Positions 1 through 53,587 of a stretch of 64,000 nt of DNA are shown here, one piece after another. The position numbers and the translations under genes are program-made. How positions within the stretch are numbered: the first letter of the stretch is position 1; every line of letters begins with the position of its first letter. The stretch comes from Patescibacteria group bacterium (GTDB taxonomy: Bacteria; Patescibacteriota; Patescibacteriia; Veblenbacterales; UBA10138). The notes under the pieces were generated by a model, which saw only the letters and a program-made list of their open reading frames with translations, did no database searches and was not told the DNA's origin. Location of the stretch: assembly GCA_018817715.1 (NCBI GenBank), contig JAHITT010000004.1, positions 19,751-83,750 on the forward strand, written 5' to 3'.

Positions 1-688
1 GAAATAGTTAAACCAGCTTCACCCACGGCCGTTAAAGCCGAGACCACCCAGGAAGTTGAACCGGCATCGGATTCACCGCCCGGCGCATAAGGCCAACCGC
101 CATCGTTGTTTTGAGCTTGCTTTAAATAATTAATAGCTGATTGCAAGGCACTATCGCTAGCCGACAAACCAGCGTACTTTAAAGACATTACTACGGCCGC
201 CGTATCATTAGTATCGGATTCACCGGCCTTAGCATAACTCCAACCGCCGTCGCTGTTTTGATTGCTAAGCAAATAAGCTTTAGCACCGCTGACAGAAGTA
301 TCACTTAAACTAACCCCAGCCTTAAGCAAAGCCATTAAACCCCAAGCATCATCATTTAACAAATCTTTATCACCTAATTGATTGTTATTAAACAAACCTT
401 TTAAGCCGGTTACCAAATCCACTCCAGCAAAGCTGGCTGGGTTTTGCCCCACCGCCTTAATAGCTAAAATTCTTTTAGCATAATCCGTGGCGGCCGTGCC
501 ACTAAAAGTTTTTAAATGATCTGTGGCCACCTGGCTTTGCCCGCCAGCTACAAGAGCCATAGTTAACCAATCATCAGCCGGCTGCTGCTTTAAATAATTA
601 ACTGCTTCGGGTACGCCACCCTGTACCACCATTGGTGGCGCCACTAAAAACAACAACAGTAAAAAGGCAATTATTTTTTTCTTATTCA
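1..688 (-). CDS. Secreted prenyltransferase/squalene-oxidase-repeat protein (alpha6/alpha6 barrel, transcobalamin alpha-domain-like); C-terminus lies beyond window start
   Basis: Minus-strand ORF starts at ATG 688-686 (MNKKKIIAFLLLLFLVAPP, signal peptide). Repeated GGW motifs (SDGGWSY, NDGGWPY) are typical of PT repeats. Runs off the window, so absent from the ORF track. Confidence 0.5.
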
Positions 689-777
689 TAAAATTTCTAA
701 TTAATAATTTAAAAAATAAAAGTAAATTAGGTTGGGCGGAAATATAAATTATTTATTCCCGCCCAGTTAAAATTGGC

Positions 778-1185
778 TTAAAAATTAACTTGATAAACTT
801 TAACTACCCGATTGTCCGAAAAATCATTAGGTAAAGGATTTACGGTGTTGGCTGATAAAAAACCCTTAAACAGCAAAAGCCCAGAACCTATTTTAACCAT
901 ATCCATACCAATTGACTGATAGTACCATTTGCCGTCATTGCCCTTTAAGTAATAAAGATAACTGGCTAATGTACCATCAAAAACTGTCAGCTGATAACTA
1001 TTAAAAGAGCTATTAAAAGTAAAAGTAATTTTATTGCCAAAATTACTGGCTAAATAATCTTTAACCAACATATCTTGACTGGCTTCTTCTGGCTCTACTA
1101 TTTGACCGCAGGCGCTAAAACCGCCCAAAGTTATAATTCCTAATCCAATTAAAGAACTTGTTTTAAAAAATCTCCGTCTGTCCAC
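778..1185 (-). CDS. Small lipoprotein (GTG start), downstream of B12 riboswitch
   Basis: ORF track 135 aa. Signal peptide plus lipobox-like GGFSAC. GGAGG RBS 8 nt upstream of GTG at 1185. Confidence 0.5.
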   Translation of the reverse strand: MDRRRFFKTSSLIGLGIITLGGFSACGQIVEPEEASQDMLVKDYLASNFGNKITFTFNSSFNSYQLTVFDGTLASYLYYLKGNDGKWYYQSIGMDMVKIGSGLLLFKGFLSANTVNPLPNDFSDNRVVKVYQVNF

Positions 1186-1250
1186 TTTCTACCTCCGTAG
1201 GATTGTTTGTATTTTTATTTTAGTGTTTTATTTTAAATTCACTTCTTACT

Positions 1251-1450
1251 AAAAAACCCGTTCTTAGCAAGAACGGGGAAGATTAGATGACACGACAAGT
1301 CTTAATTGTAGCGGATTCCAACCCTCTCCTTTCTCGCGAAGGAAGAGTGTATATCTATGTATCAATCATTCAGTAATCGGACTTGTCTTAAGCTTACTTA
1401 AAGACATACCGTAGCGGGACTGTGCTGGATTCTCACCAGCTTCCCTGAAT
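1251..1450 (-). ncRNA. Cobalamin (B12) riboswitch: aptamer plus intrinsic terminator expression platform
   Basis: Minus-strand read CAGGGAAGCUGGUGAGAAUCCAGCACAGUCCCGCUACGGUA matches the conserved B12-element core AGGGAA-n3-GGUGnAAnUCC-n3-RCnGnCCCGCnACnGUA. A long-range inverted repeat gacaagtcttaa/ttaagacaagtc is present. The 3' end is a hairpin cccgttcttgctaagaacggg followed by U6 (plus coordinates 1251-1277). Confidence 0.65.
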
Positions 1451-1456
1451 GATTAA

Positions 1457-2023
1457 TTATTTCAAAGAACTATTAGATAACACTTTAAACAAAGATAAAT
1501 GATAATTTTTTAATTTTACTAAATATAAAACCAAACTATAAACCCCGAATAAAACTCCGGTAAACATTAAATCTCCTATCATAGTGTTACGGAAAAAGGG
1601 AATGGCTAAAGTGTAAGCCATTATCAATCCTTCTAAAGTTTTAGGATACCAACTAGCTGTTGCCCAGACTGCCAAATTAGTTACTATAAAAAATAAAGTA
1701 GATGAGGCTAAAGAAAAAGCTACTAATTTTCCAGCTGAAAACTTTTTTAAATAAGCACCCATCAAACCAATAAAAGTAAAACTCCCATAAACAGCCAGCA
1801 TTACTGGCCAGTGATAAAAGCCAATTACTATATCCGCTAATAACATACCTGTCAGTGGCACGGCCAAGGCCCATTTTCTAGGCAATAAAGCACCAGCCAA
1901 AAGCGCCGCGGCCGCTACTGGTGCCACGTTCCAAATATGAGGCATTAAACGACTAACTACTATCAAACCTACTAAAATTAAACTAATGATTATTTTATTT
2001 TTCATAATTATACTTTTTGACAA
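1457..2023 (-). CDS. Integral membrane protein, Trp-rich, about 6 TM; possible vitamin/cobalamin transporter S-component
   Basis: ORF track 188 aa, hydrophobic throughout. Function inferred only from position in the B12 cluster. Confidence 0.45.
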   Translation of the reverse strand: MSKSIIMKNKIIISLILVGLIVVSRLMPHIWNVAPVAAAALLAGALLPRKWALAVPLTGMLLADIVIGFYHWPVMLAVYGSFTFIGLMGAYLKKFSAGKLVAFSLASSTLFFIVTNLAVWATASWYPKTLEGLIMAYTLAIPFFRNTMIGDLMFTGVLFGVYSLVLYLVKLKNYHLSLFKVLSNSSLK

Positions 2024-2091: not shown

Positions 2092-2541
2092 TTAAAACTC
2101 CGACTTTCTGAATGTCCACAAAATAGTTTCTCCGCCTTGCAGTTGATATTTATCAGCCGCCACCTGAGGCTGTAAGCCATTTACCCAATACTGCCAATAT
2201 TTTTGCCCGTCACTACCGTTAGCTTTATTTCCGATCTTTTTTATAAAAGCACCATAAACTGATTTATCCGGCCCGTCATAATCTAAAGCCAAAGCTTTTT
2301 CCTGATTAAGCATTACCAAAACATCCAAAATGCTTTGTCCGGGAGTTATTTCTATACCACCATAACTTATTAAGTTATCACCCGTGTCTACCAGTACAGC
2401 TACTTTGCTTAAAGCTTGTTCGGCCTGGTTGTCCGGCCGTAAATAAACGCTCTGACTTTTTTGACCAAAACTAAAACCCACTAAAAATAAACCTACCCCG
2501 GCCAATAAAGCCACTAAACTATAAATAATTCTTTGCTTCAT
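2092..2541 (-). CDS. DUF4430-like secreted protein (transcobalamin beta-domain-like B12-binding)
   Basis: Signal peptide. Motifs YGG..W..NG and KYWQYWVNG are typical of DUF4430. Adjacent to a PduO-type adenosyltransferase. Confidence 0.55.
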   Translation of the reverse strand: MKQRIIYSLVALLAGVGLFLVGFSFGQKSQSVYLRPDNQAEQALSKVAVLVDTGDNLISYGGIEITPGQSILDVLVMLNQEKALALDYDGPDKSVYGAFIKKIGNKANGSDGQKYWQYWVNGLQPQVAADKYQLQGGETILWTFRKSEF

Positions 2542-2552
2542 AAAATTATTAA

Positions 2553-3104
2553 TTAACTTCGACCCTGCCAGACTTTATCTGTTTGACCAGCTTGTTTATT
2601 AGCTAACCTGGCCAAGACGAATAAAAAATCAGACAAACGATTTAAATATTTAACGACTTCCTCTCTGACTTCTTCCATTTCCCTAAGTCTTACTACTTGA
2701 CGCTCAGCCCGACGGCAAACCGTGCGAGCCAAATGCAAACTAGCCGCCACTTTACTACCGCCTGGAAAAATAAATTGCTGTAAAGTGGGTAATTCTTTTT
2801 CCATTTTGTCTATTTGTTCTTCCAAATAAAGAATCTTATCTTCATTTACTAAAACTAAACCTTCTATAGTCTTATCTGGTGGTGTAGCCAATTCTGAAGC
2901 CAGCGTAAATAAATCTTTTTGTATATTTAGCAAAACTGCCTGATAATCATTTGCCCCATCTTCAGCTAATACCACGCCCAAAGCAGCATTAGTTTCATCC
3001 ACTGTGCCGTAAGCTTCCAATCTTAAATTACCTTTGGGCACTCTTAAACCGCCATAAAGACTGGTTTCGCCCCGATCACCGGTTTTAGTATAAATCTTAG
3101 ACAT
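2553..3104 (-). CDS. pduO: ATP:cob(I)alamin adenosyltransferase, PduO type
   Basis: N-terminus MSKIYTKTGDRGETSLYGG is the canonical PduO/MMAB signature. Confidence 0.85.
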   Translation of the reverse strand: MSKIYTKTGDRGETSLYGGLRVPKGNLRLEAYGTVDETNAALGVVLAEDGANDYQAVLLNIQKDLFTLASELATPPDKTIEGLVLVNEDKILYLEEQIDKMEKELPTLQQFIFPGGSKVAASLHLARTVCRRAERQVVRLREMEEVREEVVKYLNRLSDFLFVLARLANKQAGQTDKVWQGRS

Positions 3105-3118: not shown

Positions 3119-5416
3119 TTATTTTAATTCACAAGCACCGCTAATGCAGGCTAATTCTTTGGAACCCTGGGTTTCGTCATCATATTCGTAAGTTACTATT
3201 TTAGCAAAATCAATGTCAGGAAAATTCTTAACCAATTCTTCATAAGCTTCTTTGGTTATTTCCTCATAAGGCGCCAACTGATAAACATGCTCGTCTCGAG
3301 GCAAAAAAGACAAACCGCCCACCATTTCCCAATTCTCATAAACCCAGTTGCCTACCTTAAGCCAATCATCGCCGCCGACCGATATGGTAACTGACGGGTT
3401 ATGTTCAGTATAATTAATTTTTAAATTTTTCCAATGACCCAACAATTTCATAGCGGAAATATCACGCCTGACTATGGCCCCCTCGGGCGCTTTAATGGGA
3501 AATTCCAAAACATAAGTACTGGCTGTATCGGGTGACTGACCGACTTCGGGTTGATAAGGCACACCCATATCCTTAAGCATCAAAAATAAAGGGTTATGTC
3601 GTTCCACTCTAACTCGCCTAATATAATAAGGCGCGTGCCTGGGATGCATACCAGACGAAGAATCAAACAATTGTGAACCATTACCCGACGGCTTAACACA
3701 AGTTACGGCCGCCGAAGGATTAATACCGAATTTTTTAGCATATTCTTGATTTACTTTTACAGCCTCCTCGCGTAATTTTTTTAAAACCTCTTCTTGTCGT
3801 ACCGCCGGACAATCCCACTGACCAGTAATAGAAACTCCTAACAAAGCCTCGTCCTGGCAATTTTTTAACCAGTCCTTGGATAAATAAGGAAAATTCATCA
3901 AACTGGCTTGATAAGTTCCCAAAATAGTAGCCAGGCGAACTTTTCTTAATAAAGTTTCCTCGGTATCCTCGATCCGGGCCACTACTTCAGATAAATTACA
4001 AAACTGCTTAGATTTTAAAATAATTTCGCCACAAGGATTGGTACCGGAAGTGTGCATATCCGGAGCAAAAATCGGCCAACGTCTTTTGGGCAACTGTTTT
4101 TCCAAACTACCTCGATTAAATATACCCCGCTCGCCCGAGCCAGACTTCATAATATTTATCCACTCTTCCAAAAATTGGCTTAACTCCGGCTTAGTGTTAT
4201 AAGTCGCTGAGTTGTTGGCCATAGCTCTTTCCGGATGTTTTAAATAAAATTGACCGTCTTTGGCGTGACGCATTTCTAAATCATCCAAATCGGACAAAGA
4301 AATCAAAGCCGAACGCCTAACCCCACCCATTACCACTACCTCACCAATTTTACAAATTATATCGTGAGCATCTAAAGTGGTTAATCTTCTACCTTGGCGT
4401 TCCATCATTCTAGCGCGCACAAACTTCATTAAAGAAATTAAAGGTCCGGGGCCAGAAGCTCGTCCGCCCATTGTTTTAAGCCTAGCACCTTGTGGCCTAA
4501 TAGCAGAATAATCAAACTCAATATCTTGACCTTTAGACCAAGTAACCAAACCTAAGGCCAAAGCGTTACTCCAACCTTCTTTACTGTCTTCCACTAAATA
4601 CTTGGGTAATTTTTGGCCACCTTGCCTCTGAATAATGGGTAATTGCTCCACCGTCTGCCTTTCCACCGAAAAACCTACACCAGTACCACACATCAATACA
4701 TACATTATCTCAGCAAAATCCTGCCAAGCCTTGGGAGCGATAAAAGAACAATTATAAGCGCAAACATTAGTAGCTCGGGCCGCTTCACCAGCTCCCCACA
4801 AAAGACGCATTGAACCCAAAGCTTCCATATTACGAATACCCTCTCTAATCTCATCGTACTCAACTGTACTTAACTTATCTCCCAAATTTTCCCGCATAAA
4901 CCCAACATAACGATCAACTGTTTCCATCCAAGTTTCGCGTCGAGCTTTCTCTGGCAACCACCTGGAATAAGTACTGTAAAAAACATATTCCGAAAGTTGA
5001 TTACGAAAATATTTTTTACTAGTCTGAGCCAAATCTTTAACTTCTTGAGGTACTTCTGGACGATGACGTCTTAAATGCGCATGCTCTTCCCGGTAAACAA
5101 TATAAGCCCGAGCTGTTTTAAGCCACTTGGAACGCATTAATACCAATTCCACTATATCCTGAACCTGCTCGACTGTCGGTGTAGTGTGACCGTCATAAAT
5201 TTGTTCCAACTCCTCCGCCACTCTAAAAGCCAACCTAGCTGCTTCGGGCCGGCCGAATTCTCCTGTTTCTTTACCTGATTTAAAAATAGCCTCCACTATT
5301 TTAGTAGGATCAAACTCCACCGTCCGACCGTCACGTTTTATTATACGACTAAGTTTCAACTTGTTATTAGTTGTAGTAGTGGCGGTTGATTTAACAGACG
5401 AAGAGGTGTTAGGCAT
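3119..5416 (-). CDS. nrdJ: Ribonucleotide reductase, probably adenosylcobalamin-dependent class II (NrdJ) with N-terminal ATP-cone
   Basis: ATP-cone (KLSRIIKRDGRTVEFDPTKI), catalytic NPCGEI, C-terminal CISGAC redox pair. No beta-subunit gene nearby. PduO and B12-uptake genes are adjacent. Confidence 0.75.
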   Translation of the reverse strand: MPNTSSSVKSTATTTTNNKLKLSRIIKRDGRTVEFDPTKIVEAIFKSGKETGEFGRPEAARLAFRVAEELEQIYDGHTTPTVEQVQDIVELVLMRSKWLKTARAYIVYREEHAHLRRHRPEVPQEVKDLAQTSKKYFRNQLSEYVFYSTYSRWLPEKARRETWMETVDRYVGFMRENLGDKLSTVEYDEIREGIRNMEALGSMRLLWGAGEAARATNVCAYNCSFIAPKAWQDFAEIMYVLMCGTGVGFSVERQTVEQLPIIQRQGGQKLPKYLVEDSKEGWSNALALGLVTWSKGQDIEFDYSAIRPQGARLKTMGGRASGPGPLISLMKFVRARMMERQGRRLTTLDAHDIICKIGEVVVMGGVRRSALISLSDLDDLEMRHAKDGQFYLKHPERAMANNSATYNTKPELSQFLEEWINIMKSGSGERGIFNRGSLEKQLPKRRWPIFAPDMHTSGTNPCGEIILKSKQFCNLSEVVARIEDTEETLLRKVRLATILGTYQASLMNFPYLSKDWLKNCQDEALLGVSITGQWDCPAVRQEEVLKKLREEAVKVNQEYAKKFGINPSAAVTCVKPSGNGSQLFDSSSGMHPRHAPYYIRRVRVERHNPLFLMLKDMGVPYQPEVGQSPDTASTYVLEFPIKAPEGAIVRRDISAMKLLGHWKNLKINYTEHNPSVTISVGGDDWLKVGNWVYENWEMVGGLSFLPRDEHVYQLAPYEEITKEAYEELVKNFPDIDFAKIVTYEYDDETQGSKELACISGACELK

Positions 5417-5455: not shown

Positions 5456-5938
5456 TTATTTTTTATCCGTTAAACGACGCTTAGCGGAACGAACATTCAA
5501 ACCTTTCAATTCTTTAGTAAAACTGTCTACATCTTGAAACGAACGATAAACCGAAGCAAATCTTATATAAGCCACTTGATCAAAATTTTTAAGCCTCTTC
5601 ATAACTATTTCACCAATATCGCGCGAAGTTATTTCTGGTTTACGTCGTCGTTGAATATCACGTTCAATTTTTTGCACTAACCCCTTAAAACGATCAGCCG
5701 TATAGGGCCTTTTTTCCAAAGAATGCCTTAAACCAACTGATAACTTTTCTTTATTATATGGCTCATGACTACCATCCCTTTTAATAACCGCCAAATCCAA
5801 TATTTCACTCTCTTCCACGGTTGAAAAACGAAAATTACATTTAGTACACTCCCGACGACGTCTAATATTCAAACCATCCGCTACAACGCGTGAATCAGTT
5901 ACTTTAGTGTCGTAATAATTACAAGAAGGACAATGCAT
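5456..5938 (-). CDS. nrdR: Transcriptional repressor NrdR (zinc ribbon plus ATP-cone); true start likely the internal Met at 5938, not the ORF-track 5974
   Basis: MHCPSCNYYDTKVTDSRV...ECTKCNFRFSTVE is the NrdR zinc-ribbon signature. Confidence 0.9.
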   Translation of the reverse strand: MHCPSCNYYDTKVTDSRVVADGLNIRRRRECTKCNFRFSTVEESEILDLAVIKRDGSHEPYNKEKLSVGLRHSLEKRPYTADRFKGLVQKIERDIQRRRKPEITSRDIGEIVMKRLKNFDQVAYIRFASVYRSFQDVDSFTKELKGLNVRSAKRRLTDKK

Positions 5939-5949
5939 ATTTATTATTC

Positions 5950-6002
5950 CTACTACAATATATAGTAGCACCAATAACTATTCTACCCCTATATGTAGTG
6001 GT
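5950..6002 (-). promoter_or_regulatory. Two tandem NrdR boxes upstream of nrdR-nrdJ
   Basis: ctaCTACAATATATAGTAg (5950-5968) and ccCCTATATGTAGtgg (5987-6002) both fit the acaCwAtATaTwGtgt consensus, with centres about 35 bp apart. Confidence 0.55.
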
Positions 6003-6148: not shown

Positions 6149-7336
6149 TTACTTACCTAATTTTCTCCTAATAAAAGGCGGAATTTCATAATCATCTTCC
6201 ACTTTACTGGCCGGTTTGTCCTTAACAGTGGGATTGCTAACCATCGGCCGGCTAACCAGAGGTGAAGCTGGTTTTTCAAAAGGAATTTCTTCAGTTTTAA
6301 CAGTTGATTTAACTTCACCGCGAGCCAAAGACGAAGGCGTATAAGAATTATTCGGCAAAGGATTAATATTTTTCTTCGTTTTGGATTGTTCAGCAAAACC
6401 AGTCGCTATAACAGTTACCTTAAGCTGATCCTTCATACTCTCATCAATAACCGCACCAAAAATAATTTTAGCATTGGAATCAGCTGAACTAGTTATCACC
6501 CGAGCAGCTTCATTAACTTCATACATAGTCAAGCTAGGTCCGCCAGTAATAGTAAATAATATGCCCTTAGCACCATCAATACCAATTTCCAACAAAGGAG
6601 AATCAATAGCTGCCTTGGCTGCTTCCACCGCCCGATCCTCACCGCTGGCCTGACCAATACCCATTAAAGCTGAACCTGTTCCGCTCATAATAGCTTTAAC
6701 ATCAGCAAAATCCACGTTAATTAATCCTGGTATAGTAACCAATTCAGAAATACCCTGAACACCTTGCCGCAGAACTTCATCAACAATACTAAAAGAATCC
6801 AACAAAGAAGTCTTTTTATCTATTAATTGCAGCAAGCGATCATTAGGTATGGTAATAATAGTATCCACCTTATCCATTAGTTCATCATAACCTTGTTCAG
6901 CCACTCCTCGTCGCTGAGCACCTTCAAAACTAAAAGGCTTAGTTACAACAGCAATAGTTAAAGCGCCGGCTTCCTTAGCCAGTTCAGCTATTAAAGGTGA
7001 AGCACCTGTACCAGTACCCCCACCCAAACCACAAGTCAAAAATACCATATCGGCACCCTTTAAAGCCTCTTTTATCTCGTCCCGACTTTCTTCAGCGGCT
7101 TTACGCCCCAATTCTGGATCCATACCCGCTCCCAAACCACGGGTGATAGCCGAACCAATATGGATTTTGGTTGAAGCTCTGGAATAATGTAAAGCTTGAG
7201 CATCAGTATTAATAGCCAAAAACTCAACGCCTCTTATTTTTCCGGAAATCATGCGATTAACAGCCGAGCCGCCCGACCCCCCCACGCCAACGACTTTTAT
7301 TTTGGCCAATGTTTCAATTTCTGGTTTAACTTCCAT
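6149..7336 (-). CDS. ftsZ: Cell division protein FtsZ
   Basis: GGGTGTG tubulin signature (GLGGGTGTGASP). Confidence 0.95.
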   Translation of the reverse strand: MEVKPEIETLAKIKVVGVGGSGGSAVNRMISGKIRGVEFLAINTDAQALHYSRASTKIHIGSAITRGLGAGMDPELGRKAAEESRDEIKEALKGADMVFLTCGLGGGTGTGASPLIAELAKEAGALTIAVVTKPFSFEGAQRRGVAEQGYDELMDKVDTIITIPNDRLLQLIDKKTSLLDSFSIVDEVLRQGVQGISELVTIPGLINVDFADVKAIMSGTGSALMGIGQASGEDRAVEAAKAAIDSPLLEIGIDGAKGILFTITGGPSLTMYEVNEAARVITSSADSNAKIIFGAVIDESMKDQLKVTVIATGFAEQSKTKKNINPLPNNSYTPSSLARGEVKSTVKTEEIPFEKPASPLVSRPMVSNPTVKDKPASKVEDDYEIPPFIRRKLGK

Positions 7337-7360
7337 AAAAACTTGGTTAATAAAATAAAA

Positions 7361-8602
7361 TTAAGGAATAACTGATTTAAAAATTTTTTTAAAAACTCCA
7401 CTTACTTGTTTTATTTGTGAAAATCTAGGCCATTTAAATCCACTACTACCACTATCCGTCTGCTGATTAATTCCCCAACGTAATAAACCGATAGCCGTAG
7501 TAAAAGAAATATCATTAATTCTTTCTAAAGGACTAGTTACGTCCAAAGCATAACCTAAACTGGCGGGTAAACGAAATTTCTTCTTAGCTAAATCTAATAA
7601 TCCTGGCAATTTTGCCCCACCACCAGTTAAAACTATTCCAGCAGGTAATTTACCTGAACGATCCAATTTAATAAGTTCTTTATCAATCATTTCAAAAATA
7701 TCTTCTAACCTGGCTTCAATAATTTCCGCCACCTGCCGACGATTCACCCGACCTTCTTCATTAGAAAATTCAGATAAATCAATTTCCTCTCTTTTACCAA
7801 CTTCATCCGGCATGGCCTGACCATAATCCATTTTTAATCTTTCTGCGACATCAATAGAAGTTCGTAAACAAATTGCTATATCATTGGTAATGTGGCCAGA
7901 ACCTACTGGCAAGACAACAGCATGCAAAGGATCTCCTTCTTCTAAAACCAACAAACTAGTGGTAGAACCACCGATATTAACAACTGCCACACCCAATTCT
8001 TTTTGTCTTTTACTAACAACTGCCTCGGCGTTAGCTAAAATACCTAAAACCAAATCATCAATATCTACACCAGTACGATAAACACACTTTGTTAAATTTT
8101 TTATCTGAGCAGATTGACCTTGAATAATCTGCGCCTCCACCTCCAAACGAACACCAGTCATACCGACTGGATCTTTTATACCCGGCTGACTGTCCACACT
8201 ATAACTACGGGGTAAGACATGTAATATTTCATAATTAGGTGGCACTGCTACAGCCTGAGCCGCTTCCACTACACGTACAACATCATCTTCGCCGATTTCT
8301 CCGTTTGGTTTAGAAACAGCAATTACTCCGCGACTAGATTGAGAAACAATATGATTACCATTAATGCTAACTAAAACATGCTCGACTGGGGCGCCAAGCA
8401 TTCTTTCGGTTTTTTCTAAACAACTGGAAATAGAAGTAACGGCGTCTTCTATACTGGTTACCACACCACGATTTATTCCATCCGAAGGAACCTCGGCTAA
8501 ACCAATAATCTGTAACTGATCAGTCGAAGAAACTTGAGCAACCGCCAAACGAACATCGGTTGAACCTATATCTAATCCGGCAATAATACTTAGTTTGGCC
8601 AT
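7361..8602 (-). CDS. ftsA: Cell division protein FtsA (actin-like ATPase)
   Basis: IAGLDIGST actin fold N-terminus. Sits immediately upstream of ftsZ. Confidence 0.9.
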   Translation of the reverse strand: MAKLSIIAGLDIGSTDVRLAVAQVSSTDQLQIIGLAEVPSDGINRGVVTSIEDAVTSISSCLEKTERMLGAPVEHVLVSINGNHIVSQSSRGVIAVSKPNGEIGEDDVVRVVEAAQAVAVPPNYEILHVLPRSYSVDSQPGIKDPVGMTGVRLEVEAQIIQGQSAQIKNLTKCVYRTGVDIDDLVLGILANAEAVVSKRQKELGVAVVNIGGSTTSLLVLEEGDPLHAVVLPVGSGHITNDIAICLRTSIDVAERLKMDYGQAMPDEVGKREEIDLSEFSNEEGRVNRRQVAEIIEARLEDIFEMIDKELIKLDRSGKLPAGIVLTGGGAKLPGLLDLAKKKFRLPASLGYALDVTSPLERINDISFTTAIGLLRWGINQQTDSGSSGFKWPRFSQIKQVSGVFKKIFKSVIP

Positions 8603-8698
8603 GAGAACAATTAAAAAATAAATCTATATACTTTTTTAGTATACAACTTATTAAACCAATCTGCCAACTAAACCCATGAACAATTAAATTGTTCAGGT

Positions 8699-9058
8699 CT
8701 AGTTATTGAATATTAAAAAAAGCCCAACCACGACGGCTAAGCCAGCGGCCAAAAGTACCAAAGCTGCCAACATGTCCTTTAATCGACCTACTGCCTCGGA
8801 AAACTTGGGCTCCAAAAGATCCATTAATCTTTCCAAAATAGTATTTAATATTTCACCAGATAAAACAAAAAAACAAATCAATAATAATAATAACCAAGCT
8901 AATAAATCCCAGTTATTCCACCAAGCGTAGCCTACAACTAAAATAGCCGCTAAAATTTCCCAACGAAAACTAACCTCCCGACGCCACAAATAAACCAAGC
9001 CCCGACCAGCATAACTAAAACGCCTTAACCATTGTTTTGCTATTCTAAATATAAACAT
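8699..9058 (-). CDS. dgkA: Diacylglycerol/undecaprenol kinase family (DgkA)
   Basis: 119 aa, 3 TM. GEILNTILERLMDL matches the DgkA E..NTAIE motif. Confidence 0.7.
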   Translation of the reverse strand: MFIFRIAKQWLRRFSYAGRGLVYLWRREVSFRWEILAAILVVGYAWWNNWDLLAWLLLLLICFFVLSGEILNTILERLMDLLEPKFSEAVGRLKDMLAALVLLAAGLAVVVGLFLIFNN

Positions 9059-9060
9059 AA

Positions 9061-9483
9061 TTAAAATAAAATTCTTTTTTCTAAATCTCTCATTATTTTT
9101 CTTTCACTAACCACTAGATGATCATAACCGGCCAAATGAAGTAAACCATGACCAAAAAGAATGCTAAGTTCTTTAGCTAGAGAATGTTGGCGCCGTTTAG
9201 CTTGAATAATAGCTTGATCTAAACAAACAATAAGCTCCCCTACAATTGGCTCAACTTGATAAGTAAAAGATAAAATATCTGTTACTTTATTTTGATGACG
9301 GTGCCGAGTATTTAATTGACGCATCACTGGCCGACTAACAAAAACTAAAGACAATTCCTGCAAACTAAATCCGGTTACCAGATGAAATTTTTTTATAATT
9401 TTTTTGGTTTGCTTTAGAAAAGCGAACGGTATTACACCGCCGGCTAAATTATTATACTCAAAAACAAAACCAACTCCGAGCAT
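9061..9483 (-). CDS. ybeY: rRNA maturation endoribonuclease YbeY
   Basis: HGLLHLAGYDH metal-binding motif. Confidence 0.85.
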   Translation of the reverse strand: MLGVGFVFEYNNLAGGVIPFAFLKQTKKIIKKFHLVTGFSLQELSLVFVSRPVMRQLNTRHRHQNKVTDILSFTYQVEPIVGELIVCLDQAIIQAKRRQHSLAKELSILFGHGLLHLAGYDHLVVSERKIMRDLEKRILF

Positions 9484-9493
9484 TTATTTAAAA

Positions 9494-10807
9494 TTATAAA
9501 GCTGGTGGATTATTACCACCTGGTGGCAAATTAACAACATTCTTAACTACCTGAAAAGACTTAACCATAGCCTGAAACAAATGATAATAGGAAGCTTGCG
9601 TACGCGTTCCGATATTATAACTTAAAGTCACCAAACTATTATTCAAAGTCGTATACAAATTAAGCCCATCCAAACTTCTAGCCCAGGTTAAATCACCAAT
9701 AGTCACAATCGGAACCTCGGCAGGTTTTAAATTTGGCACCTGTTTAGCATACCAATCAACTGCTGTTAACTTCCCTGGATTATCCACTACTAAAACTTCA
9801 ATAAATTCACCTTCTGCTCCAGAAAAAATTACTTCCGTGGTCTCTTGGTCTGTAGCTTTAGCTAACCAAGCTAAGGGGTATAAAATATCATAATTAAATT
9901 TCTCATTCTTATACCAGGAAAATTTTTCCGAGTCTATTAATTTGGCACCATCGGCTTTAATTGGATCATAACCCTGATTAACTTCACTTCCATCCAAATA
10001 ACCGTCACTGTCACTGTCCGGCTTATTAACATCGGTACCAAAAATTGCCTCCTCCATATCCGTTAAACCATCTGCATCCTGATCACTAGTTAAACTAGGC
10101 GGTACGACTGACCGAACTTCTGTTATGGTTTCTTCTAATTGAACATTTATACCCAAAGGTCCAGCCAATTGTTCACCTGTTAACAAACCAGCCACCCCTT
10201 CTTCTAAAGAAAATTTTATAGTATAAACTAAACCGTCAGGGCTTTCATACAAATAAGGTAAACCGCCTGGTTCTGGATTAGTTGGCACTTTGTCCATATA
10301 CAAAGGTGGCTGAGCTACGGCCGTAAAACCAATGGCTGCTAAAACCTGATAAGGTTGGCTACCTAAAATTATCGGCTGAACTGCTAAAGGATAACGTTTT
10401 TGTTCAGCTTTATAAATTTCCAAAGCTGCTTGAATATTACGAATATCTTTGTAACGCAAACGATCTCGTTCAGCTGGGGTAGCTGGTGCTGGTTCTTCTA
10501 AAGTCTCAGACTCCGAGGGGTCCGATATATTTTGAATAGGTTGATTAACGGCAACTGGTAAATTATTAGGTGCAACTGATTGAGAATTACGCAATAAAAA
10601 ATATATACCAAAAGTAGCCGCCAAAACTACTGCTCCAATCGCCCCTAACCACCAATATTTCAAAAAAATATTATCTTTAGGTAAAGGAGCTTGATAAGTC
10701 ACAGGCATAGTATAAATTTGCCCCCAAACTGATTCCTTAGTATTCTCAAGCGGGTTAATTTCTTCCTTGTCTATATTATCAGTAGTTTGATTTTTTATAT
10801 TAAACAC
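9494..10807 (-). CDS. Pilin-like (pseudopilin-type N-terminal helix) surface protein with thrombospondin-type-3 Ca-binding repeats
   Basis: TM helix followed by RDRLRYKDIRNIQAALEIYKAEQKRYP (pilin alpha1 motif). DADGLTDMEE and DSDSDGYLDGSE are DxDxDG loops. Confidence 0.5.
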   Translation of the reverse strand: MFNIKNQTTDNIDKEEINPLENTKESVWGQIYTMPVTYQAPLPKDNIFLKYWWLGAIGAVVLAATFGIYFLLRNSQSVAPNNLPVAVNQPIQNISDPSESETLEEPAPATPAERDRLRYKDIRNIQAALEIYKAEQKRYPLAVQPIILGSQPYQVLAAIGFTAVAQPPLYMDKVPTNPEPGGLPYLYESPDGLVYTIKFSLEEGVAGLLTGEQLAGPLGINVQLEETITEVRSVVPPSLTSDQDADGLTDMEEAIFGTDVNKPDSDSDGYLDGSEVNQGYDPIKADGAKLIDSEKFSWYKNEKFNYDILYPLAWLAKATDQETTEVIFSGAEGEFIEVLVVDNPGKLTAVDWYAKQVPNLKPAEVPIVTIGDLTWARSLDGLNLYTTLNNSLVTLSYNIGTRTQASYYHLFQAMVKSFQVVKNVVNLPPGGNNPPAL

Positions 10808-11478: not shown

Positions 11479-14400
11479 TTATTCAACCGCCTCTAATTGC
11501 TTGGGGTCAATTTTTATATTTTGACTAGTTGAATTGTACTTATAACTATCACAATTATCATTGTTAGAAATTGTTACTTCGCCACTTGATAAGGACCAAA
11601 TAATGTTTTTATATTCAAAATTAGCTAATAAACTATAGCCAGTCAAACCACCCTGGCCATTATAGATATATTGATAAACATGTGAACCCAAAGAACACTT
11701 AAAATTCTTAATTACTTCATTCCAACAAGTATTAGCATTATAACCACTACCACAATCAACTAATTTATTTTTTGGGTCCACTGGCAAACCAGCACCTAAA
11801 ACATTGCCTAACTCCGATTGCCAAGACGGCCACGCACTGACTGTCCGCCCAGTTAAATAAGTTCCCGCTGATAAAACTGGATACGAACCTTTGGCTTGAT
11901 AATAATCTTCCAAAGCGGTTCTTATAGTTCTTAAATCGGTTAACCTTTGATAATCACGCTTCAATTTACTTATTGAATCAGTTGAAGATAAATTAATATT
12001 AAATTGCCAATTATTTATTAACTCATTGAATATTTGAGTCATTGATTGTCCAGCTGATTTATTATAAGACAACACATAAATATTAGAATAGGCTTTCCCA
12101 GCAGTTAAATTAACCGCTCCAACGTAAACGCTATTACCATCCTGAATAGCCGAATAATCATCCAAATTACCAATTAATTTAGGGTTGGCTTTAATAATAT
12201 CTGAACGGTTATTATACCAATCCATCGGATTTAACTGATTATTATTGCTATAAACTCTTAAACCAATAACATCCTCACTACCATCTATCCGCAATAAATA
12301 TTCATTTAATAAATCGCCTTGACCCGGCAAGGGACCGGCTTTGATTAACTCTGGTAAACCAGCACTAGAATCGTTCACTGTCACGGATCGACAATAGCGC
12401 AAACGAAAATTATACTTATTATCATCAGATTGCCAAGGTACTTCACATAAATAAACCTCCAACAAAGCTGAAGTGCTGGCCTGACCAGCTAATTGATTTG
12501 AAGCATCAGCAATTACTTGTAAGGCCGCCCGACCATTTTTATTACCAGATACAGCCACTACAGATTGCTCAGATACTAAACCTGATAAGCTAACCACCCC
12601 AGCCGCATCACTCTTGGTCCATTTGTAAGAAGCATTAACGGCTACATCCTCTTTATCCCGGGCTTGGGCATAAAATTCTTGACCCTGACCAGGTTTATTA
12701 TAAACATGATCTGCTGGATCAATAAAAACTTTATCAACCTGACAAACTTCCTGCCCAACTCTAAAATTCCACTGACAATTATTAACTGTGCCACAATCAA
12801 ACCGACCAGACGGCAAAAAGACTTGATAACTACTATGACTGCTATTGGGTGGCAATAAATTGTTTTTAGGCGTAAAAATCAAACGACTACCTCGTAAACT
12901 AGTAGTACCTAGTATAGTTTCTATAATCTCCGGACAAGCATCTTCATTACAACCCGTTTTTAATACTAAATCACTAGCCTTAACTTCATTGGCTAAAGGT
13001 GGACGGTTAAAAGTCGCCACCACCACAGCATTACGACAAACATTTTGCGCCGAACCTAAGGGCTCCACTTTTATTAAACGTAAAACCGTACTATCTGGAT
13101 CGCTTCCTACGTCTATATCTTTATCTGTTATATATAATCTACTTTGGTTTTCCTTATTCTCGCTAGAAATTTTAGCCTTAATCATAACTGGCTGATCAAC
13201 CGCCGTCCAATCTTTAGCCGTCGCTCGAGATTTAAAACTATTAGATAAGGGAGTTACTGTAGCTTTAGTAGTATTATCGCTAGACCATTGCCAACTATAA
13301 CCACTAGGCGACAAAATATTACAGTTACTTGCCACTGCCTGACCAATAAAATCTTTGGTATTATTAGGAGTCGTCAAACTAGAAATTTTAGCCTGGCTGG
13401 GTGACACCAAAACTTTATCTAAACTACAACTGCCAGTTGGTTTAACCCGCCATTGCCATACATAATCCTCAGCCAAATTTAATCCAACTAAGCTGACTAC
13501 CGACTGCTTAATAGTTGCCTGATACCAATAACCAGGCTGTAAATTAGCTACCGATTTGGCTGTAAAACCCTCAGCACCGCTTTGACTACTAGGCAGTATT
13601 TCAATAGTTTCCCAATTAATTTCCGTTTGACAATCTGATTGATTAAATATATCAGCCTGGCCACAGACTCGTAATTTTATATTAGCGACCGTCAGACTAC
13701 TTGCTAACATACTTTCGGTAAAACGAACCGACACCAAAGTATTGTTGCAGCTTAAATCATTCAAAGCCGGACTAGGACTCTGCGTACCAGATAAACAGGC
13801 AGTATATTCCACAACTTTAGGTTGTTTAACCACTGTTTGTCCGGCACCCGAAACCTGCAAAATCTTACAATTTGATTTTAATCCGTTAGAAGTAACACAA
13901 ACCTGATGACGACCAGCTGCTAAAGCATTAAGAGCTCCTAAAACTGGCGTCTGAGTATAAATTTCATCATCTTGCCAATAAAATTCTGGACTAAACTTAT
14001 TCGCCAAAAAATCACTAAATGATAATTTATTACCTATGGACTGATTACCAAAACGTTCACCTGTCACCTTAACCGCCAGCGGCAACTCCTCTATCGCAAC
14101 TTGATTAGGAGCTAAAGAACAAATACCTGGTCCAACCGGATTATTATTAACTGTAAAATTTTCTAAGTTGCTAGGCTTATTAGAACTATTAGTACCAGTT
14201 GAGGCAGTTGTTAATTGCAACATGTAATCACCCAGTGGCAAACCTTGAGGAACTTTTACGGTAATATCCGTCTCTTGCCACCAATTACTACACTGACCGG
14301 GCGCCTCAGCTATCCAAGAATTACTGCCCGACCAAAATTTAACTACACCTGGTTGATCACCAAAATTATATCCTTGCAAACTAATAAATTGATCAGACGC

Positions 14401-39059: not shown

Positions 39060-40991
39060 TTATCTACTCGCTCCCGAATAAGTAATCGCTTGCATTATAT
39101 TCCAATCTTCAGTAGAACTTGGTGTATGCCCGTAAATAGCTTTAAAGATCTTGATGCCGTTAGTTTCACTATTCAAATTCCTATTCTCAGCTTTTTGTCT
39201 AAGACCATAAGCCATAACAGTCACAGCTGCGTTATCATTGGCATTGCTCATATCAGCTACTCTTTTGTAGATCTTTTGAAATTGTTCTTTAGCTTTGTTC
39301 TCAGCCCCTTGATTAGTAATACTTGGCCAACGACCGTTAGCGATTTTAATGGCGTCAGTTAATTCCTCTTCTGTCTCTGGCAATTTATTAAAAGCGTTCT
39401 TATAAGAATACATAACTGCTGCTCTTTCGCCGGCTCCTAATTTTTGAGTGTTTGTATCTGCCCCATAAGTAATAAAACTATTTATGGCCGTTTCCATTTT
39501 AGCTGATAACTTTTCAACATTATTAGTTAAGTTTTCAAAATACTTAATTTTAGTTGCCTGCTCTTTAACAATATCTCTTAACTGTTTAAGTTCCGCTAAT
39601 ACCTCGCTTAATTTATCATCATACAGTCTATTAGCACTAACAGCCGCTTCGGTTATTTTAATAGTCGGTTTTATTATTTCGTTAGCAGTATCAGGGGCTA
39701 AAACCGGACTATCTGTCCCAGGATAGTTTTTATCAATTGTTATTATACCTGAATAATTATTATTGGATTCATTTAATTCATCTAACTCATTTCCATTATC
39801 TACAGTATATTCGAGATAATAATTATTAATTTTAGTAAATTTACCCAACCAAAGGCGAGAAATTGACTCGCCGGGCATTAAAGGATAGTCCGTTGTCGGC
39901 AATGGTCTATTAGTCTTCAAACTAACTATTGGGGTTTCAGAGTTAAATAAAAAGTTTTGATTAGATAAATTGAAGTATGTATTTAATAGACCCTTAGAAC
40001 TAGTTAGTAGTGCCGTGCCATTATTTTTAATAGTAACTGAGATTGTTCCAACTTGGTTAGCATAATTTGTAGAAAAAGTAATACCAGTAACTGTTAAATC
40101 TGGTTTTTTATCAACATTATTAATCGAATCATTAATAACAATTGATTTTGAAAGAGTGTTGTTATTTTCATTTGATTCATCTAATTCGTTAGCGTTATCA
40201 ATTGTAAACTGAAGATATAAATTACCAGAAGTATTAAATTTTCCTACCCAAGAAAAAGTGATTGACTCCTCCTTTTTTAAAGGGTTCGAAATGGTTGGAT
40301 CTGGACGATTAGCACGGTAAGCAAGAATCGAGGGTGTTTCACTACTAAAAATAAAGTTTTGTGCCGATAGATTATTATACCAATTAAATAATCCTTGGCC
40401 GCTAGTTAGATCCCCGCCTAAATTTTTAACCGTTACGGATAGTGTTCCGTTTTCATTTTTTACAGATGAACTGAAGTTTATATTTGTTACAGTTAAATCT
40501 GGTTTAGAAATAATCGCACCGATCGAAATACTGACGCTTAAACTATTGTTATTCTCGTTGGTCTCCACCAACTCATTAGCATTATCGACTGTATATTGTA
40601 AATATAAATTACCAGAAGTATTAAATTTTCCTACCCAAGAAAAAGTGATTGACTCATTAGTTTTTAATGGATTATTGGTTGAAAGATCCGGCAGAGCTCT
40701 ATCAGTTTTAAATTGAGTAGCTGAAGGAGTTGAGCTATCAAAGACAAAATTTTGAAAACTAAAATTATTGTAAGTGTTAAGTAGGCCTGCAGTGTTGTTT
40801 AAATCACCACCTAAATTTTTTATAGTAACTGCTAATTTTCCGGTTTCTCCCTGTTGGGAGCCAGAAAAAGTAATACCAGTAACCGTTAAATCCGGGTTGC
40901 CTGTTTCGGCTTGAGTTTTTGTAGCAAAAAAGAAACCGCAAACCCCAAAAATTATAAATAACACCGAAACCGACTTTTTAAAATTAAACAT
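39060..40991 (-). CDS. Secreted surface protein with three tandem ~130-aa Ig/CARDB-like repeats, coiled-coil region and a C-terminal domain
   Basis: Signal peptide. Repeat unit KPDLTVTGITFS...SITFSWVGKFNTSGNLYLQ(Y/F)T(V/I)DNANEL occurs three times. Terminator hairpin at 39008-39037. Confidence 0.6.
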   Translation of the reverse strand: MFNFKKSVSVLFIIFGVCGFFFATKTQAETGNPDLTVTGITFSGSQQGETGKLAVTIKNLGGDLNNTAGLLNTYNNFSFQNFVFDSSTPSATQFKTDRALPDLSTNNPLKTNESITFSWVGKFNTSGNLYLQYTVDNANELVETNENNNSLSVSISIGAIISKPDLTVTNINFSSSVKNENGTLSVTVKNLGGDLTSGQGLFNWYNNLSAQNFIFSSETPSILAYRANRPDPTISNPLKKEESITFSWVGKFNTSGNLYLQFTIDNANELDESNENNNTLSKSIVINDSINNVDKKPDLTVTGITFSTNYANQVGTISVTIKNNGTALLTSSKGLLNTYFNLSNQNFLFNSETPIVSLKTNRPLPTTDYPLMPGESISRLWLGKFTKINNYYLEYTVDNGNELDELNESNNNYSGIITIDKNYPGTDSPVLAPDTANEIIKPTIKITEAAVSANRLYDDKLSEVLAELKQLRDIVKEQATKIKYFENLTNNVEKLSAKMETAINSFITYGADTNTQKLGAGERAAVMYSYKNAFNKLPETEEELTDAIKIANGRWPSITNQGAENKAKEQFQKIYKRVADMSNANDNAAVTVMAYGLRQKAENRNLNSETNGIKIFKAIYGHTPSSTEDWNIMQAITYSGASR

Positions 40992-50647: not shown

Positions 50648-50650
50648 AAA

Positions 50651-51813: not shown

Positions 51814-51888
51814 TCCGGGGTAGCTCAGTGGTAGAGCAGTTGGCTGTTAACCAATTGGTCGTGGGTTCGAGTCCCACCCCCGGAGCCA
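51814..51888 (+). tRNA. tRNA-Asn (anticodon GTT), CCA encoded; likely integration site
   Basis: TCCGGGGTAGCTCAGTGGTAGAGC...CTGTTAA...GGGTTCGAGTCCCACCCCCGGAGCCA. Confidence 0.85.
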
Positions 51889-53490: not shown

Positions 53491-53587
53491 TTAGTTAATA
53501 ATTTGTTGGTTCGAATGCGACTTTTCGTACCACGACACACCCTATACTAATTTTTTGGACAAGCTAAGCTCGAGTTGCCCACAGCAG

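Follow-up and report, generated by a model that had tools for sequence, protein, structure and literature searches.

Secreted bacterial proteins that combine a toroid with an SLBB domain, the 'transcobalamin-like clade', were predicted to scavenge B12 by Burroughs, Balaji, Iyer and Aravind in 2007 (PMC1796856). In Lactobacillus delbrueckii, the transporter component CbrT is encoded in an nrdJ-cbrS-cbrT-pduO cluster (PMC5997447; PDB 6FNP), and on its own CbrT failed to sustain B12 uptake by E. coli (PMC5997447). A split toroid/SLBB pair of L. sakei, Lsa1839/Lsa1840, has been claimed for haem uptake (bioRxiv 10.1101/864751). Our literature search returned nothing relevant on DUF6580, CbrS, SLBB domains together with riboswitches, or cobalamin riboswitches in Patescibacteria/CPR. 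The genomes of this group are minimal, and its members presumably rely on other cells for their cofactors.

We analyzed a 64-kb stretch of DNA from one such bacterium (hereafter, the window). The genes around a cobalamin riboswitch on its minus strand probably make up one half of a system by which this Patescibacteria (CPR) bacterium salvages corrinoids (vitamin B12), namely the half responsible for regulation and for the extracellular steps. The evidence consists of the riboswitch and the two competing folds of its leader, the domain composition of a secreted protein and the folds that it matches, the homologies of the neighboring genes and a family-wide linkage between riboswitch and operon. 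A first-pass annotation had proposed a B12-capture role for this locus, which our results support, with corrinoid binding and transport being the parts that we infer.

A cmscan of the whole window yielded a single match to the cobalamin clan, a full-length AdoCbl (class I cobalamin) riboswitch aptamer at 1316–1471 on the minus strand (RF01482; 66.4 bits with a gathering score of 50, E = 5.4e-10, model positions 1–149). The cobalamin-riboswitch core that the first-pass annotation had recognized at 1409–1450 of the minus strand forms this aptamer's conserved core. The element exceeds the curated gathering score and is thus a member of the cobalamin riboswitch clan (CL00101), as anticipated, while the top family was RF01482 and not RF00174, the family named in advance, which belongs to the same clan and in which overlapping matches of lower score are suppressed in the cmscan output. 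The 5′ end of the aptamer shares 15 nt with the 3′ end of the DUF6580 ORF, and the aptamer is kept at the equivalent position in the orthologous loci L001 (75 bits) and L003 (65 bits).

The expression platform extends over 1247–1348 on the minus strand and is composed of the P13 region (∼1317–1348), a linker hairpin and an intrinsic terminator. A terminator scan placed the terminator stem at 1277–1257 of this strand (9 bp, including five G-C pairs, with a 3-nt loop) and the subsequent TTTTTT at 1256–1251; the first-pass annotation had given an intrinsic terminator at 1251–1277. In an alternative fold, 1317–1348 pairs with 1256–1287 as an antiterminator. ViennaRNA suboptimal folding of 1245–1352 gave −32.9 kcal/mol for the antiterminator fold and −32.2 kcal/mol for the fold with P13 and the terminator, so the two competing leader folds are nearly isoenergetic in silico (≤0.7 kcal/mol apart). 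The terminator stem is preserved in L001 via a compensatory G:C to A:T change, and 41 of 52 related loci have a similar hairpin with a T-run separating the aptamer from the ORF. The terminator and its competing antiterminator fold support in silico the earlier proposal of a transcriptional OFF switch, and we predict that the B12 riboswitch acts in this manner.

The linkage between riboswitch and toroid gene was measured in 80 species-representative Patescibacteria genomes encoding a toroid-DUF4430 protein. Because the Rfam gathering thresholds miss many divergent CPR riboswitches, a custom covariance model was used and cross-checked in Rfam at an E-value threshold. This model detected a same-strand riboswitch within 1.5 kb upstream of the toroid gene in 61 loci at E < 0.01 and in 70 loci at E < 1, with a median gap of 103 nt between riboswitch and gene; 75 matches were on the strand of the toroid gene versus one on the other strand. 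In the Rfam check, nine of ten sampled loci had a cobalamin-clan match at the same place, six of which were at or above the gathering score, and a strict B12-box regular expression recovered only about 15 loci. Across 61 related elements, 91.9% of alignment cells were paired, versus 65.7% in shuffles and at most 49% with slid partners. Compensatory changes were found in 21 of 25 riboswitch pairs in this 61-sequence alignment, which was fitted to the model.

The usual operon in these genomes comprises the toroid-DUF4430 gene and genes for an Ig-like membrane-anchored protein, a solo DUF4430 protein and a DUF6580 protein. The Ig-like partner (d178) was found in 56 of the 80 loci, solo DUF4430 in 39 and DUF6580 in 33, and in about 25 loci DUF6580 follows the toroid gene in a riboswitch-preceded string. 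Further downstream, the loci orthologous to the window encode two proteins, the Ig-like protein with its membrane anchor (about 178 aa) and a membrane protein of 120 aa. Fusions were also observed between DUF6580 and the toroid (L082) and between the Ig-like protein and DUF4430 (L027 and L051), and NrdJ, PduO and NrdR recur near the toroid loci. No ECF or ABC ATPase was found within 8 kb of the operon in the loci, excluding two or three unrelated cases, only 3 of 84 loci had any ABC ATPase in their flanks, and UvrA was the only exception to the lack of ABC ATPase or EcfT-like genes in the 64-kb window. What had been described as a non-textbook arrangement in one organism with a reduced genome is instead a family-wide Patescibacteria operon and, since the same arrangement recurs across the group, we predict that it is the apparent standard B12-scavenging route of Patescibacteria.

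The first gene past the riboswitch encodes a lipoprotein of 135 aa (778–1185, minus strand), as the first-pass annotation had noted, with a GTG start, a Tat-like RRRFFK motif and a downstream FSAC (LNAC in orthologues). This protein had no Pfam or NCBIfam match. Close homologues among 5.8 billion proteins numbered only four, all in Patescibacteria, and in an HMM scan of 1.84 billion representatives, some giant repeat proteins and a single 151-aa relative devoid of Pfam domains were the only matches outside the lipoprotein's own cluster. Judged from these searches the lipoprotein is a clade-specific orphan; its AF2 model, built from a five-sequence alignment, had a pLDDT of 42 and was unusable.

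Between the lipoprotein and toroid genes, a conserved hairpin was read from the sequence at 734–764 of the minus strand (GGGCGGGAA...TTCCGCCC, then a T-rich stretch), and it is nearly invariant across the window, L001, L003 and L005. This hairpin may be a partial terminator or RNA stabiliser and could limit read-through from the lipoprotein into the toroid gene. The riboswitch in this genome might then control the lipoprotein alone, with the toroid gene transcribed from its own promoter past the hairpin, and both the sharing of the hairpin and T-rich tract by all four clade members with sequence there and the promoter-like hexamers at 770–741 and 699–670 of the minus strand fit such an arrangement. 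However, the hairpin was not called as a terminator in the terminator scan, promoter-like sites were not above shuffle expectation (11 found versus 8.7 expected), and at least 60 other genomes have the toroid gene directly after the riboswitch without an intervening lipoprotein. We consider separate transcription of the toroid gene unlikely. Given those same genomes, the lipoprotein looks inserted into a pre-existing riboswitch-toroid unit.

The toroid gene itself (1–689, minus strand) runs off the end of the window, which covers only the first 229 codons, encoding a signal peptide and most of an α/α toroid. The ORF with prenyltransferase/squalene-cyclase repeats previously placed at 1–688 is present, with its ATG at 689, and matched Pfam SQHop_cyclase_N, SQHop_cyclase_C and Prenyltrans with E-values of about 1e-10. 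Syntenic orthologues share 80% identity with the 229 residues visible here and are single chains of 705–712 aa in which the toroid is followed by PKD, DUF4430 (SLBB) and two Ig-like domains; the PKD domain, of about 100 aa, lies between toroid and DUF4430 in the clade of the window. The DUF4430 part of the window protein is deduced from these orthologues, and because they carry it at the C-terminus of the same chain, we regard the product as a fused transcobalamin-like protein. The 'split two-gene transcobalamin' of the first-pass annotation was accordingly rejected, as the orthologous toroid protein has its own C-terminal DUF4430 and the ORF in the window is cut by the window end.

We evaluated the fold on a model of the orthologue P0038 (pLDDT 87). 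Foldseek TM-scores were 0.61–0.63 for intrinsic factor, about 0.5–0.56 for transcobalamin and haptocorrin, and 0.29 for squalene-hopene cyclase (SHC). Only intrinsic factor (318 residues) and transcobalamin (275 residues) were aligned over both domains, and alignments to cyclases and prenyltransferases were limited to about 210–258 residues. The protein has the N-terminal α6/α6 toroid of transcobalamin, intrinsic factor and haptocorrin, and in the orthologues a C-terminal β-grasp domain (SLBB/DUF4430) of the same chain is predicted to pack on the toroid, a juxtaposition taken from the AF2 model. By sequence profile, the DUF4430 parts match the β domains of TC2, haptocorrin and intrinsic factor. 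The toroid is closest by sequence to SHC in a profile search of the PDB (E = 3e-36), in which matches to transcobalamin, intrinsic factor and haptocorrin came from the β domain only, and Pfam PF01122 (Cobalamin_bind) had no match to the toroid protein even at E up to 10. The SHC sequence DVDDTA aligns to D-T-N-D-T-A in the toroid, departing from the DXDD motif of class II terpene cyclases. The earlier view of the toroid as transcobalamin-like rather than a terpene cyclase is upheld, and modeling suggests a cell-surface protein built like transcobalamin/intrinsic factor.

DUF6580, PduO, class II ribonucleotide reductase and NrdR are all encoded upstream on the same strand and had not been interpreted in the earlier reading. 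They belong to a string of the order nrdR-nrdJ-pduO-DUF4430-DUF6580, the first gene of which encodes the NrdR repressor (5456–5974, minus strand; from the ORF list, with an L001 orthologue containing Zn_ribbon_NrdR and ATP-cone). No match to the NrdR box (ACACTATATATAGTGT, ≤3 mismatches) was found in the window. The next genes on this strand encode a class II AdoCbl-dependent ribonucleotide reductase, NrdJ, with an ATP-cone (3119–5416; Pfam ATP-cone, RNR_Alpha and RNR-II_ins_dom; TIGR02505 (RTPR), E = 2.6e-86) and a PduO-type ATP:cob(I)alamin adenosyltransferase (2553–3104; Cob_adeno_trans, E = 4e-62; TIGR00636, 210.8 bits with a cut-off of 108). From these homologies, the predicted PduO product, AdoCbl, would be both the riboswitch ligand and the NrdJ cofactor.

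The solo DUF4430/SLBB protein of 149 aa, with an N-terminal membrane anchor, is encoded at 2092–2541 (minus strand) and was confirmed as such by Pfam (DUF4430, E = 2.7e-13). Single-sequence searches of the PDB gave only noise for this protein and a profile was required; that of 37 solo members matched haptocorrin (4kki residues 330–431, E = 8.3e-5), intrinsic factor (E = 6e-4) and the TC2 β domain, bearing out the proposed homology to the transcobalamin β domain. In related loci the solo DUF4430 gene always adjoins DUF6580, with which it is also paired in this genome. Since both genes are located upstream of the riboswitch here, they are outside its control, contrary to the earlier assumption that the DUF4430 gene was regulated by it.

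DUF6580 is a membrane protein of 188 aa (1457–2023, minus strand; Pfam DUF6580, E = 8.5e-46). A single-sequence search of the PDB found nothing, and with a profile of 33 members the single PDB match was CbrT (6fnp_A, E = 7.7e-5, 114 profile positions), with which DUF6580 has R..PN..P and GF motifs in common. The window protein matched ECF-ribofla_trS weakly (E = 0.78) and did not match PF12822, the Pfam family of CbrT. On profile evidence, DUF6580 is remotely homologous to CbrT, the ECF S-component specific for B12, and is a candidate corrinoid translocator.

The toroid-DUF4430 protein might instead have haem, a corrinoid precursor (for example, cobinamide) or some other tetrapyrrole or cofactor as its cargo, with the riboswitch coupling the uptake of that cargo to B12 status. 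Precedents exist, as the β- and α-like proteins Lsa1839 and Lsa1840 of L. sakei adjoin an ECF transporter and are tied to haem uptake (bioRxiv 10.1101/864751), ECF-CbrT also carries cobinamide (PMC5997447), and archaeal members may scavenge a distinct metabolite according to Burroughs et al. (PMC1796856). On the other hand, an AdoCbl-class riboswitch directly precedes the toroid gene in most family genomes, the toroid gene lies in a cluster with nrdJ and pduO, the operon showed no haem-related genes, and the use of cobinamide would need CobU/S/T-type genes, none of which was visible among the window genes. A ligand other than B12 is, in our judgment, quite improbable.

It is very unlikely that the toroid is an extracellular enzyme or protease-trap type protein (terpenoid cyclase, prenyltransferase, glycoside-hydrolase-like toroid or α-2-macroglobulin thioester domain) with DUF4430 and Ig domains as mere tethers, given that the riboswitch control is B12-specific, that the secreted protein is away from isoprenoid substrates and that alignment over both domains was exclusive to the two B12 carriers. 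Of its variants, the terpene cyclase was rejected on the basis of Asn at the general-acid position of DXDD in 57 of 62 family members and of one toroid instead of the two of class II cyclases, the prenyltransferase on the finding that none of the toroid columns of 62 aligned sequences has a Cys or His that is invariant or nearly so, as a Zn site (Asp, Cys, His) would require, and the thioester protein on the P0038 toroid region, which contains zero Cys and therefore neither a thioester nor a Zn-Cys site.

Under the B12 salvage reading, the locus would operate as follows. When AdoCbl is plentiful, it would bind the class I riboswitch (1316–1471, minus strand) and stabilise the P13 arm, upon which the terminator at 1257–1277 would form and transcription would stop. 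When AdoCbl is scarce, pairing of the P13 region with the terminator region would produce the antiterminator, allowing transcription to continue into the downstream genes. The products would be the Tat-type lipoprotein and the secreted multidomain protein, and in orthologues also the Ig-like and 120-aa membrane proteins. The corrinoid would presumably be sandwiched at the cell surface and handed to the membrane-anchored solo DUF4430 and the CbrT-like DUF6580 for translocation; binding, this order of hand-off and transport by DUF6580 are the steps that we infer. PduO would then adenosylate the corrinoid, and the resulting AdoCbl would be used by the B12-dependent NrdJ.

A conserved operon of four to five genes, a B12 riboswitch and a B12-dependent ribonucleotide reductase are here tied together into a concrete candidate uptake route, which gives candidate functions to DUF6580 and to bacterial DUF4430, both uncharacterised as Pfam families. 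The large and diverse set of bacterial toroid+SLBB proteins can also be used to test whether the way in which intrinsic factor and transcobalamin hold cobalamin predates animals. More speculatively, Patescibacteria as a group may rely on a riboswitch-gated 'B12 piracy' apparatus, in which the receptor is genuinely related to animal intrinsic factor/transcobalamin in both structure and evolution and DUF6580 with solo DUF4430 is an unrecognised corrinoid transporter without an ECF module; we hold this only tentatively and think it rather doubtful. If it were true, episymbionts could strip corrinoids from hosts or neighbors, and animal B12 carriers would originate in a broad bacterial family, not only in Firmicutes.

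Compared with the eukaryotic carriers intrinsic factor, transcobalamin and haptocorrin, which have PF01122 and DUF4430, the window toroid lacks a PF01122 match and is nearer to squalene-cyclase repeats, and the protein of the window's clade has a PKD insertion between the two domains and two extra C-terminal Ig-like domains. The Patescibacteria protein is also bacterial and riboswitch-controlled, and its corrinoid binding is a prediction. BtuG of Bacteroides is a β-propeller. The BtuG/BtuH system (PMC6143338) resembles the present one in logic, as a riboswitch-linked, high-affinity surface capture of corrinoids feeding a membrane transporter, but this is an analogy only, with an unrelated fold and a diderm outer membrane with TonB-dependent BtuB. 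The riboswitch shares with class I AdoCbl riboswitches that use transcription termination the conserved core, the P13 arm and a terminator competing with an antiterminator, and is otherwise ordinary, with a 5′ overlap of ∼15 nt with the stop of the preceding gene.

The nrdJ-cbrS-cbrT-pduO cluster of L. delbrueckii is paralleled by nrdJ-pduO-DUF4430-DUF6580 in the window, with nrdJ, pduO and a small partner gene in common. CbrT is the only solved structure matched by the DUF6580 profile, whereas CbrT is in PF12822 and DUF6580 forms a separate Pfam family, near which no EcfA/A′/T was found. As in the 2007 clade (PMC1796856), the Patescibacteria proteins combine a toroid with SLBB, are secreted and often carry Ig-type domains, and they are of a kind found in B12 auxotrophs, often with a second paralogous SLBB protein in the same operon. 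While the 2007 operons carry CbiO/CbiQ-type (ECF module) genes, the Patescibacteria loci have no adjacent ECF module and have DUF6580 as the membrane partner, together with a conserved Ig-like membrane-anchored partner and documented riboswitch control, in a group outside the 2007 coverage. As B12 scavenging by such proteins was already predicted for Gram-positive bacteria in 2007, the concept is not new, and what makes the present locus valuable is the regulatory proof that ties it to B12, together with its new partners and its phylogenetic breadth.

The first 6 kb of the window carry a minus-strand gene string that reads, 5' to 3', nrdR (5974-5456), nrdJ for a class II B12-dependent ribonucleotide reductase (5416-3119), a PduO-type adenosyltransferase gene (3104-2553), a DUF4430 protein of 149 aa whose N-terminus carries a membrane anchor (2541-2092), a DUF6580 membrane protein of 188 aa (2023-1457), a cobalamin riboswitch (1316-1471), a 9-bp G+C-rich terminator hairpin with a T-run behind it (1277-1257), a 135-aa lipoprotein (1185-778) and a prenyltransferase/squalene-cyclase-repeat (toroid) ORF that starts at 689 and continues past the window end. 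All features listed in the first-pass annotation were present, with corrections to the aptamer span, the best-scoring clan family and the toroid start codon (ATG at 689). When the whole window was scanned with cmscan, RF01482 (AdoCbl) was the single cobalamin-clan element, matching over the full model with 66.4 bits (gathering score 50 bits; E 5.4e-10), and the core sequence from which a riboswitch had been proposed (1409-1450) falls within this match. Riboswitches at the equivalent position in lipoprotein-bearing orthologous loci scored 75 and 65 bits.

The expression platform was folded with ViennaRNA over 1245-1352 (minus strand). In one fold (-32.9 kcal/mol) the P13 region (~1317-1348) pairs with 1256-1287, which uses up both terminator arms and would thus act as an antiterminator; in the other, nearly isoenergetic fold (-32.2 kcal/mol) the terminator forms alongside the P13 hairpin and a linker hairpin. 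The P13/L13 arm of class I AdoCbl riboswitches is stabilised on ligand binding, via a kissing loop with L5, so AdoCbl would favour the terminator state and switch expression off. The terminator is kept in three loci of related genomes (L001, L003 and L005), with a compensatory G:C to A:T change in L001. The conserved terminator and the competing folds support, in silico, the transcriptional OFF switch suggested earlier for this element.

The toroid gene and the DUF4430 gene at 2092-2541 had been regarded as a split two-gene system. In orthologous loci, the toroid gene product is a single chain of 705-712 aa matching the Prenyltrans/SQHop toroid, PKD and a DUF4430 of its own, and the window fragment aligns gap-free over all 229 residues, at 80% identity, with P0038, the full-length orthologue in L001. 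The apparent split thus arises from where the window ends, and the protein downstream of the riboswitch is predicted to unite the two parts of a transcobalamin-like architecture. For P0038, an AF2 model built from an alignment of 62 sequences (mean pLDDT 87) placed a signal peptide before a toroid (residues 26-271), a PKD/Ig domain (294-386), a beta-grasp domain (398-490) and two additional beta-sandwich domains. With Foldseek, the model matched intrinsic factor (3kq4/2pmv; TM 0.61-0.63, E 3e-9), haptocorrin (TM 0.56), transcobalamin (TM about 0.5-0.55) and squalene-hopene cyclase (SHC; TM 0.29), and two of the carrier alignments were long enough for both domains. The family profile matched the transcobalamin-2 beta domain via DUF4430 (E 1.7e-5), and a profile of the solo DUF4430 proteins matched the haptocorrin beta domain (E 8.3e-5) and intrinsic factor (E 6e-4), with a conserved YWQ-aromatic motif aligned; Pfam Cobalamin_bind gave no match at the sequence level. 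The most conserved residues, NDD-W, SDTNDTA and SD-G-STAW, lie where the predicted helices 111-123, 160-172 and 209-221 of the model begin; these would be helices of the inner barrel that face the central cavity, as does the surface holding the corrin in transcobalamin.

The toroid repeats also matched SHC in the family profile (E 3e-36), and a squalene-cyclase-type enzyme was considered. We rejected it because the DVDDTA position of SHC reads DTNDTA here, the general-acid residue is Asn in 57/62 family members (Asp in 5/62) and the protein has one toroid instead of two, in keeping with the earlier preference for a carrier-like protein over a terpene cyclase. A prenyltransferase and a macroglobulin-type thioester protein were both rejected since the toroid has neither Cys nor a conserved His, excluding a zinc site in the former case and, for lack of Cys, a thioester in the latter.

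A search with the full-length orthologue returned 170 relatives, mostly toroid-DUF4430 proteins of ~600 aa from Patescibacteria and a few archaea, annotated solely as 'DUF4430 domain-containing'. A scan of one genome per species gave 80 loci, which we searched with a custom covariance model built from seven Rfam-confirmed elements. A same-strand match lay within 1.5 kb upstream of the toroid gene in 61/80 loci at E<0.01 and in 70/80 at E<1, with a median gap of 103 nt between aptamer and gene; 75 matches were on the strand of the gene and 1 was on the opposite strand. The remaining loci included several without upstream sequence or with the element one gene farther upstream (L017). Of 10 sampled loci, 9 gave a cobalamin-clan match at this position when Rfam was run with an E-value threshold; 6 of these reached the gathering score, and one, L036, had escaped the custom model. 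In an alignment of 61 elements, itself fitted to the model, 91.9% of cells were paired, compared with 65.7% in shuffles and 49% or less after the partners were slid, and 21 of 25 pairs showed compensatory changes. The stretch from aptamer to start codon held a hairpin followed by a T-run in 41 of 52 loci.

The sole opposite-strand match (L026:7497-7652, minus; 33.6 bits) is a short way upstream of the true plus-strand element (7760-7914) and could be either due to chance or a second riboswitch in divergent orientation. L022:7645-11041 holds two riboswitch-toroid units in tandem. In the first, a 60-bit riboswitch precedes a short toroid ORF of 333 aa; in the second, a 48-bit riboswitch precedes a full-length toroid-DUF4430 gene. 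Several typical Patescibacteria-type operons occur in MAGs titled 'uncultured Gammaproteobacteria' and a few in Aminicenantia or Bathyarchaeia (L027, L036, L037, L039, L051 and L056), which could reflect mislabelled bins or true spread beyond Patescibacteria.

Classifying the ORFs of every locus by HMMs seeded from the window and L001, we found the commonest order to be riboswitch, toroid-DUF4430, an Ig-like protein of ~178 aa, solo DUF4430 and DUF6580. The Ig-like partner (56/80 loci) has a signal peptide, an ASH/Cep192/PapD-type domain and a C-terminal membrane helix; solo DUF4430 occurs in 39/80 loci and DUF6580 in 33/80, and nrdJ (15), nrdR (9) and pduO (8) recur in the flanks. In the clade of the window (L001, L003, L005, L006, L007, L011, L015 and L031), the solo DUF4430-DUF6580 pair is relocated upstream of the riboswitch, behind nrdJ-pduO. 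Directly behind nrdJ-pduO-DUF4430 in L082, a 1090-codon ORF (6493-9765) joins DUF6580 (residues 45-200) to an SQHop toroid, PG_binding_1 and a bacterial surface Ig-like domain, and in L027 and L051 the Ig-like protein is fused to DUF4430. Such fusions support physical cooperation of the operon products.

In L001-L005, the closest relatives, and in the window itself, the orphan lipoprotein (778-1185, minus) sits between riboswitch and toroid gene. It had only four close homologues, all in Patescibacteria, whose contigs share the order nrdR-nrdJ-pduO-DUF4430-DUF6580, riboswitch, lipoprotein, toroid gene. Its twin-arginine (Tat-type) signal, RRRFFK, hints that the protein is exported already folded, perhaps loaded with a cofactor, and is odd for a lipoprotein gene whose sole known context is a B12 riboswitch. 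A further hairpin (GGGCGGGAA...TTCCGCCC) with a T-rich tract separates the lipoprotein and toroid genes (734-764, minus); it is nearly invariant across the window, L001, L003 and L005, and L005 has an insertion of ~150 nt immediately behind it.

Elsewhere in the window, a tRNA (51814-85, plus) and the gene of a large serine recombinase (51847-53490, minus; Resolvase and Recombinase) overlap, the latter with its 3' end. Farther downstream come an SNF2 helicase (57023-59971), a Bro-N protein, an N6/N4 DNA methylase (60871-62457) and a ResIII helicase (from 62459). The region 51814-64000 resembles an integrated island of the mobile or restriction-defence kind. We also noted a 1511-aa protein with an N-terminal T4SS_pilin domain and Big_5 Ig-like repeats (11479-16014, minus), a CARDB-repeat surface protein (39060-40991) and an ArsP-type permease adjoining ArsR-like and thioredoxin-like genes (49670-51209).

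The DUF6580 profile (33 members) had one PDB match, 6FNP chain A (E 7.7e-5), with the common motifs R..PN..P and S(D/N)..(I/L)GF. This entry is ECF-CbrT, the vitamin B12 ECF transporter of Lactobacillus delbrueckii (PMC5997447), and its chain A was taken as CbrT from its length (182 aa). The aligned CbrT fragment belongs to Pfam ECF_trnsprt and the window protein to DUF6580, with a weak ECF-ribofla_trS match; by these family assignments DUF6580 is a distinct, remote relative of S-components. R25, P28, H29, N32, D64, G68, T115, N116, Y126, P142 and F143 are invariant or nearly so in the alignment (window 1457-2023, minus). By analogy to BtuM, where a Cys is the ligand (PMC6072759), the conserved His of R-L-x-P-H-x-x-N-F-x-P may be the axial ligand of cobalt. 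Apart from UvrA, a search for ECF/ABC ATPases found none in the window, and the loci had almost none; DUF6580 acts either alone or with an ECF module whose genes lie elsewhere. CbrT alone gave no uptake support in Escherichia coli (PMC5997447).

Taken as a whole, the riboswitch of the first-pass annotation was confirmed, its predicted OFF switch and transcobalamin-like capture role were supported and its split architecture was not. The function is very probably B12 salvage. With moderate confidence, the most likely mechanism would be an AdoCbl OFF riboswitch gating surface corrinoid capture, with predicted hand-off to solo DUF4430/DUF6580 and then to PduO and NrdJ.

The scavenging concept is already published, as a prediction. 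The SLBB superfamily was defined by Burroughs et al. (2007; PMC1796856), who reported secreted bacterial toroid+SLBB proteins, often combined with Ig-type domains and accompanied in the operon by another, paralogous SLBB gene, in B12 auxotrophs and usually adjoining CbiO/CbiQ genes; they judged B12 scavenging probable and animal transcobalamin to have been acquired from low-GC Gram-positives. Our literature searches found no publication on DUF6580 or on cobalamin riboswitches in Patescibacteria. New here are the B12 linkage shown by regulation across the whole superphylum, the DUF6580 and Ig-like partners with no adjoining ECF module, and the PKD-inserted variant and orphan Tat-lipoprotein in the clade of the window. 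In L. sakei, a split alpha/beta pair adjoins an ECF transporter and was read as a haem system (bioRxiv 10.1101/864751), and in L. delbrueckii the CbrT gene lies within an nrdJ-cbrS-cbrT-pduO cluster (PMC5997447), which parallels the nrdJ-pduO-DUF4430-DUF6580 order of the window.
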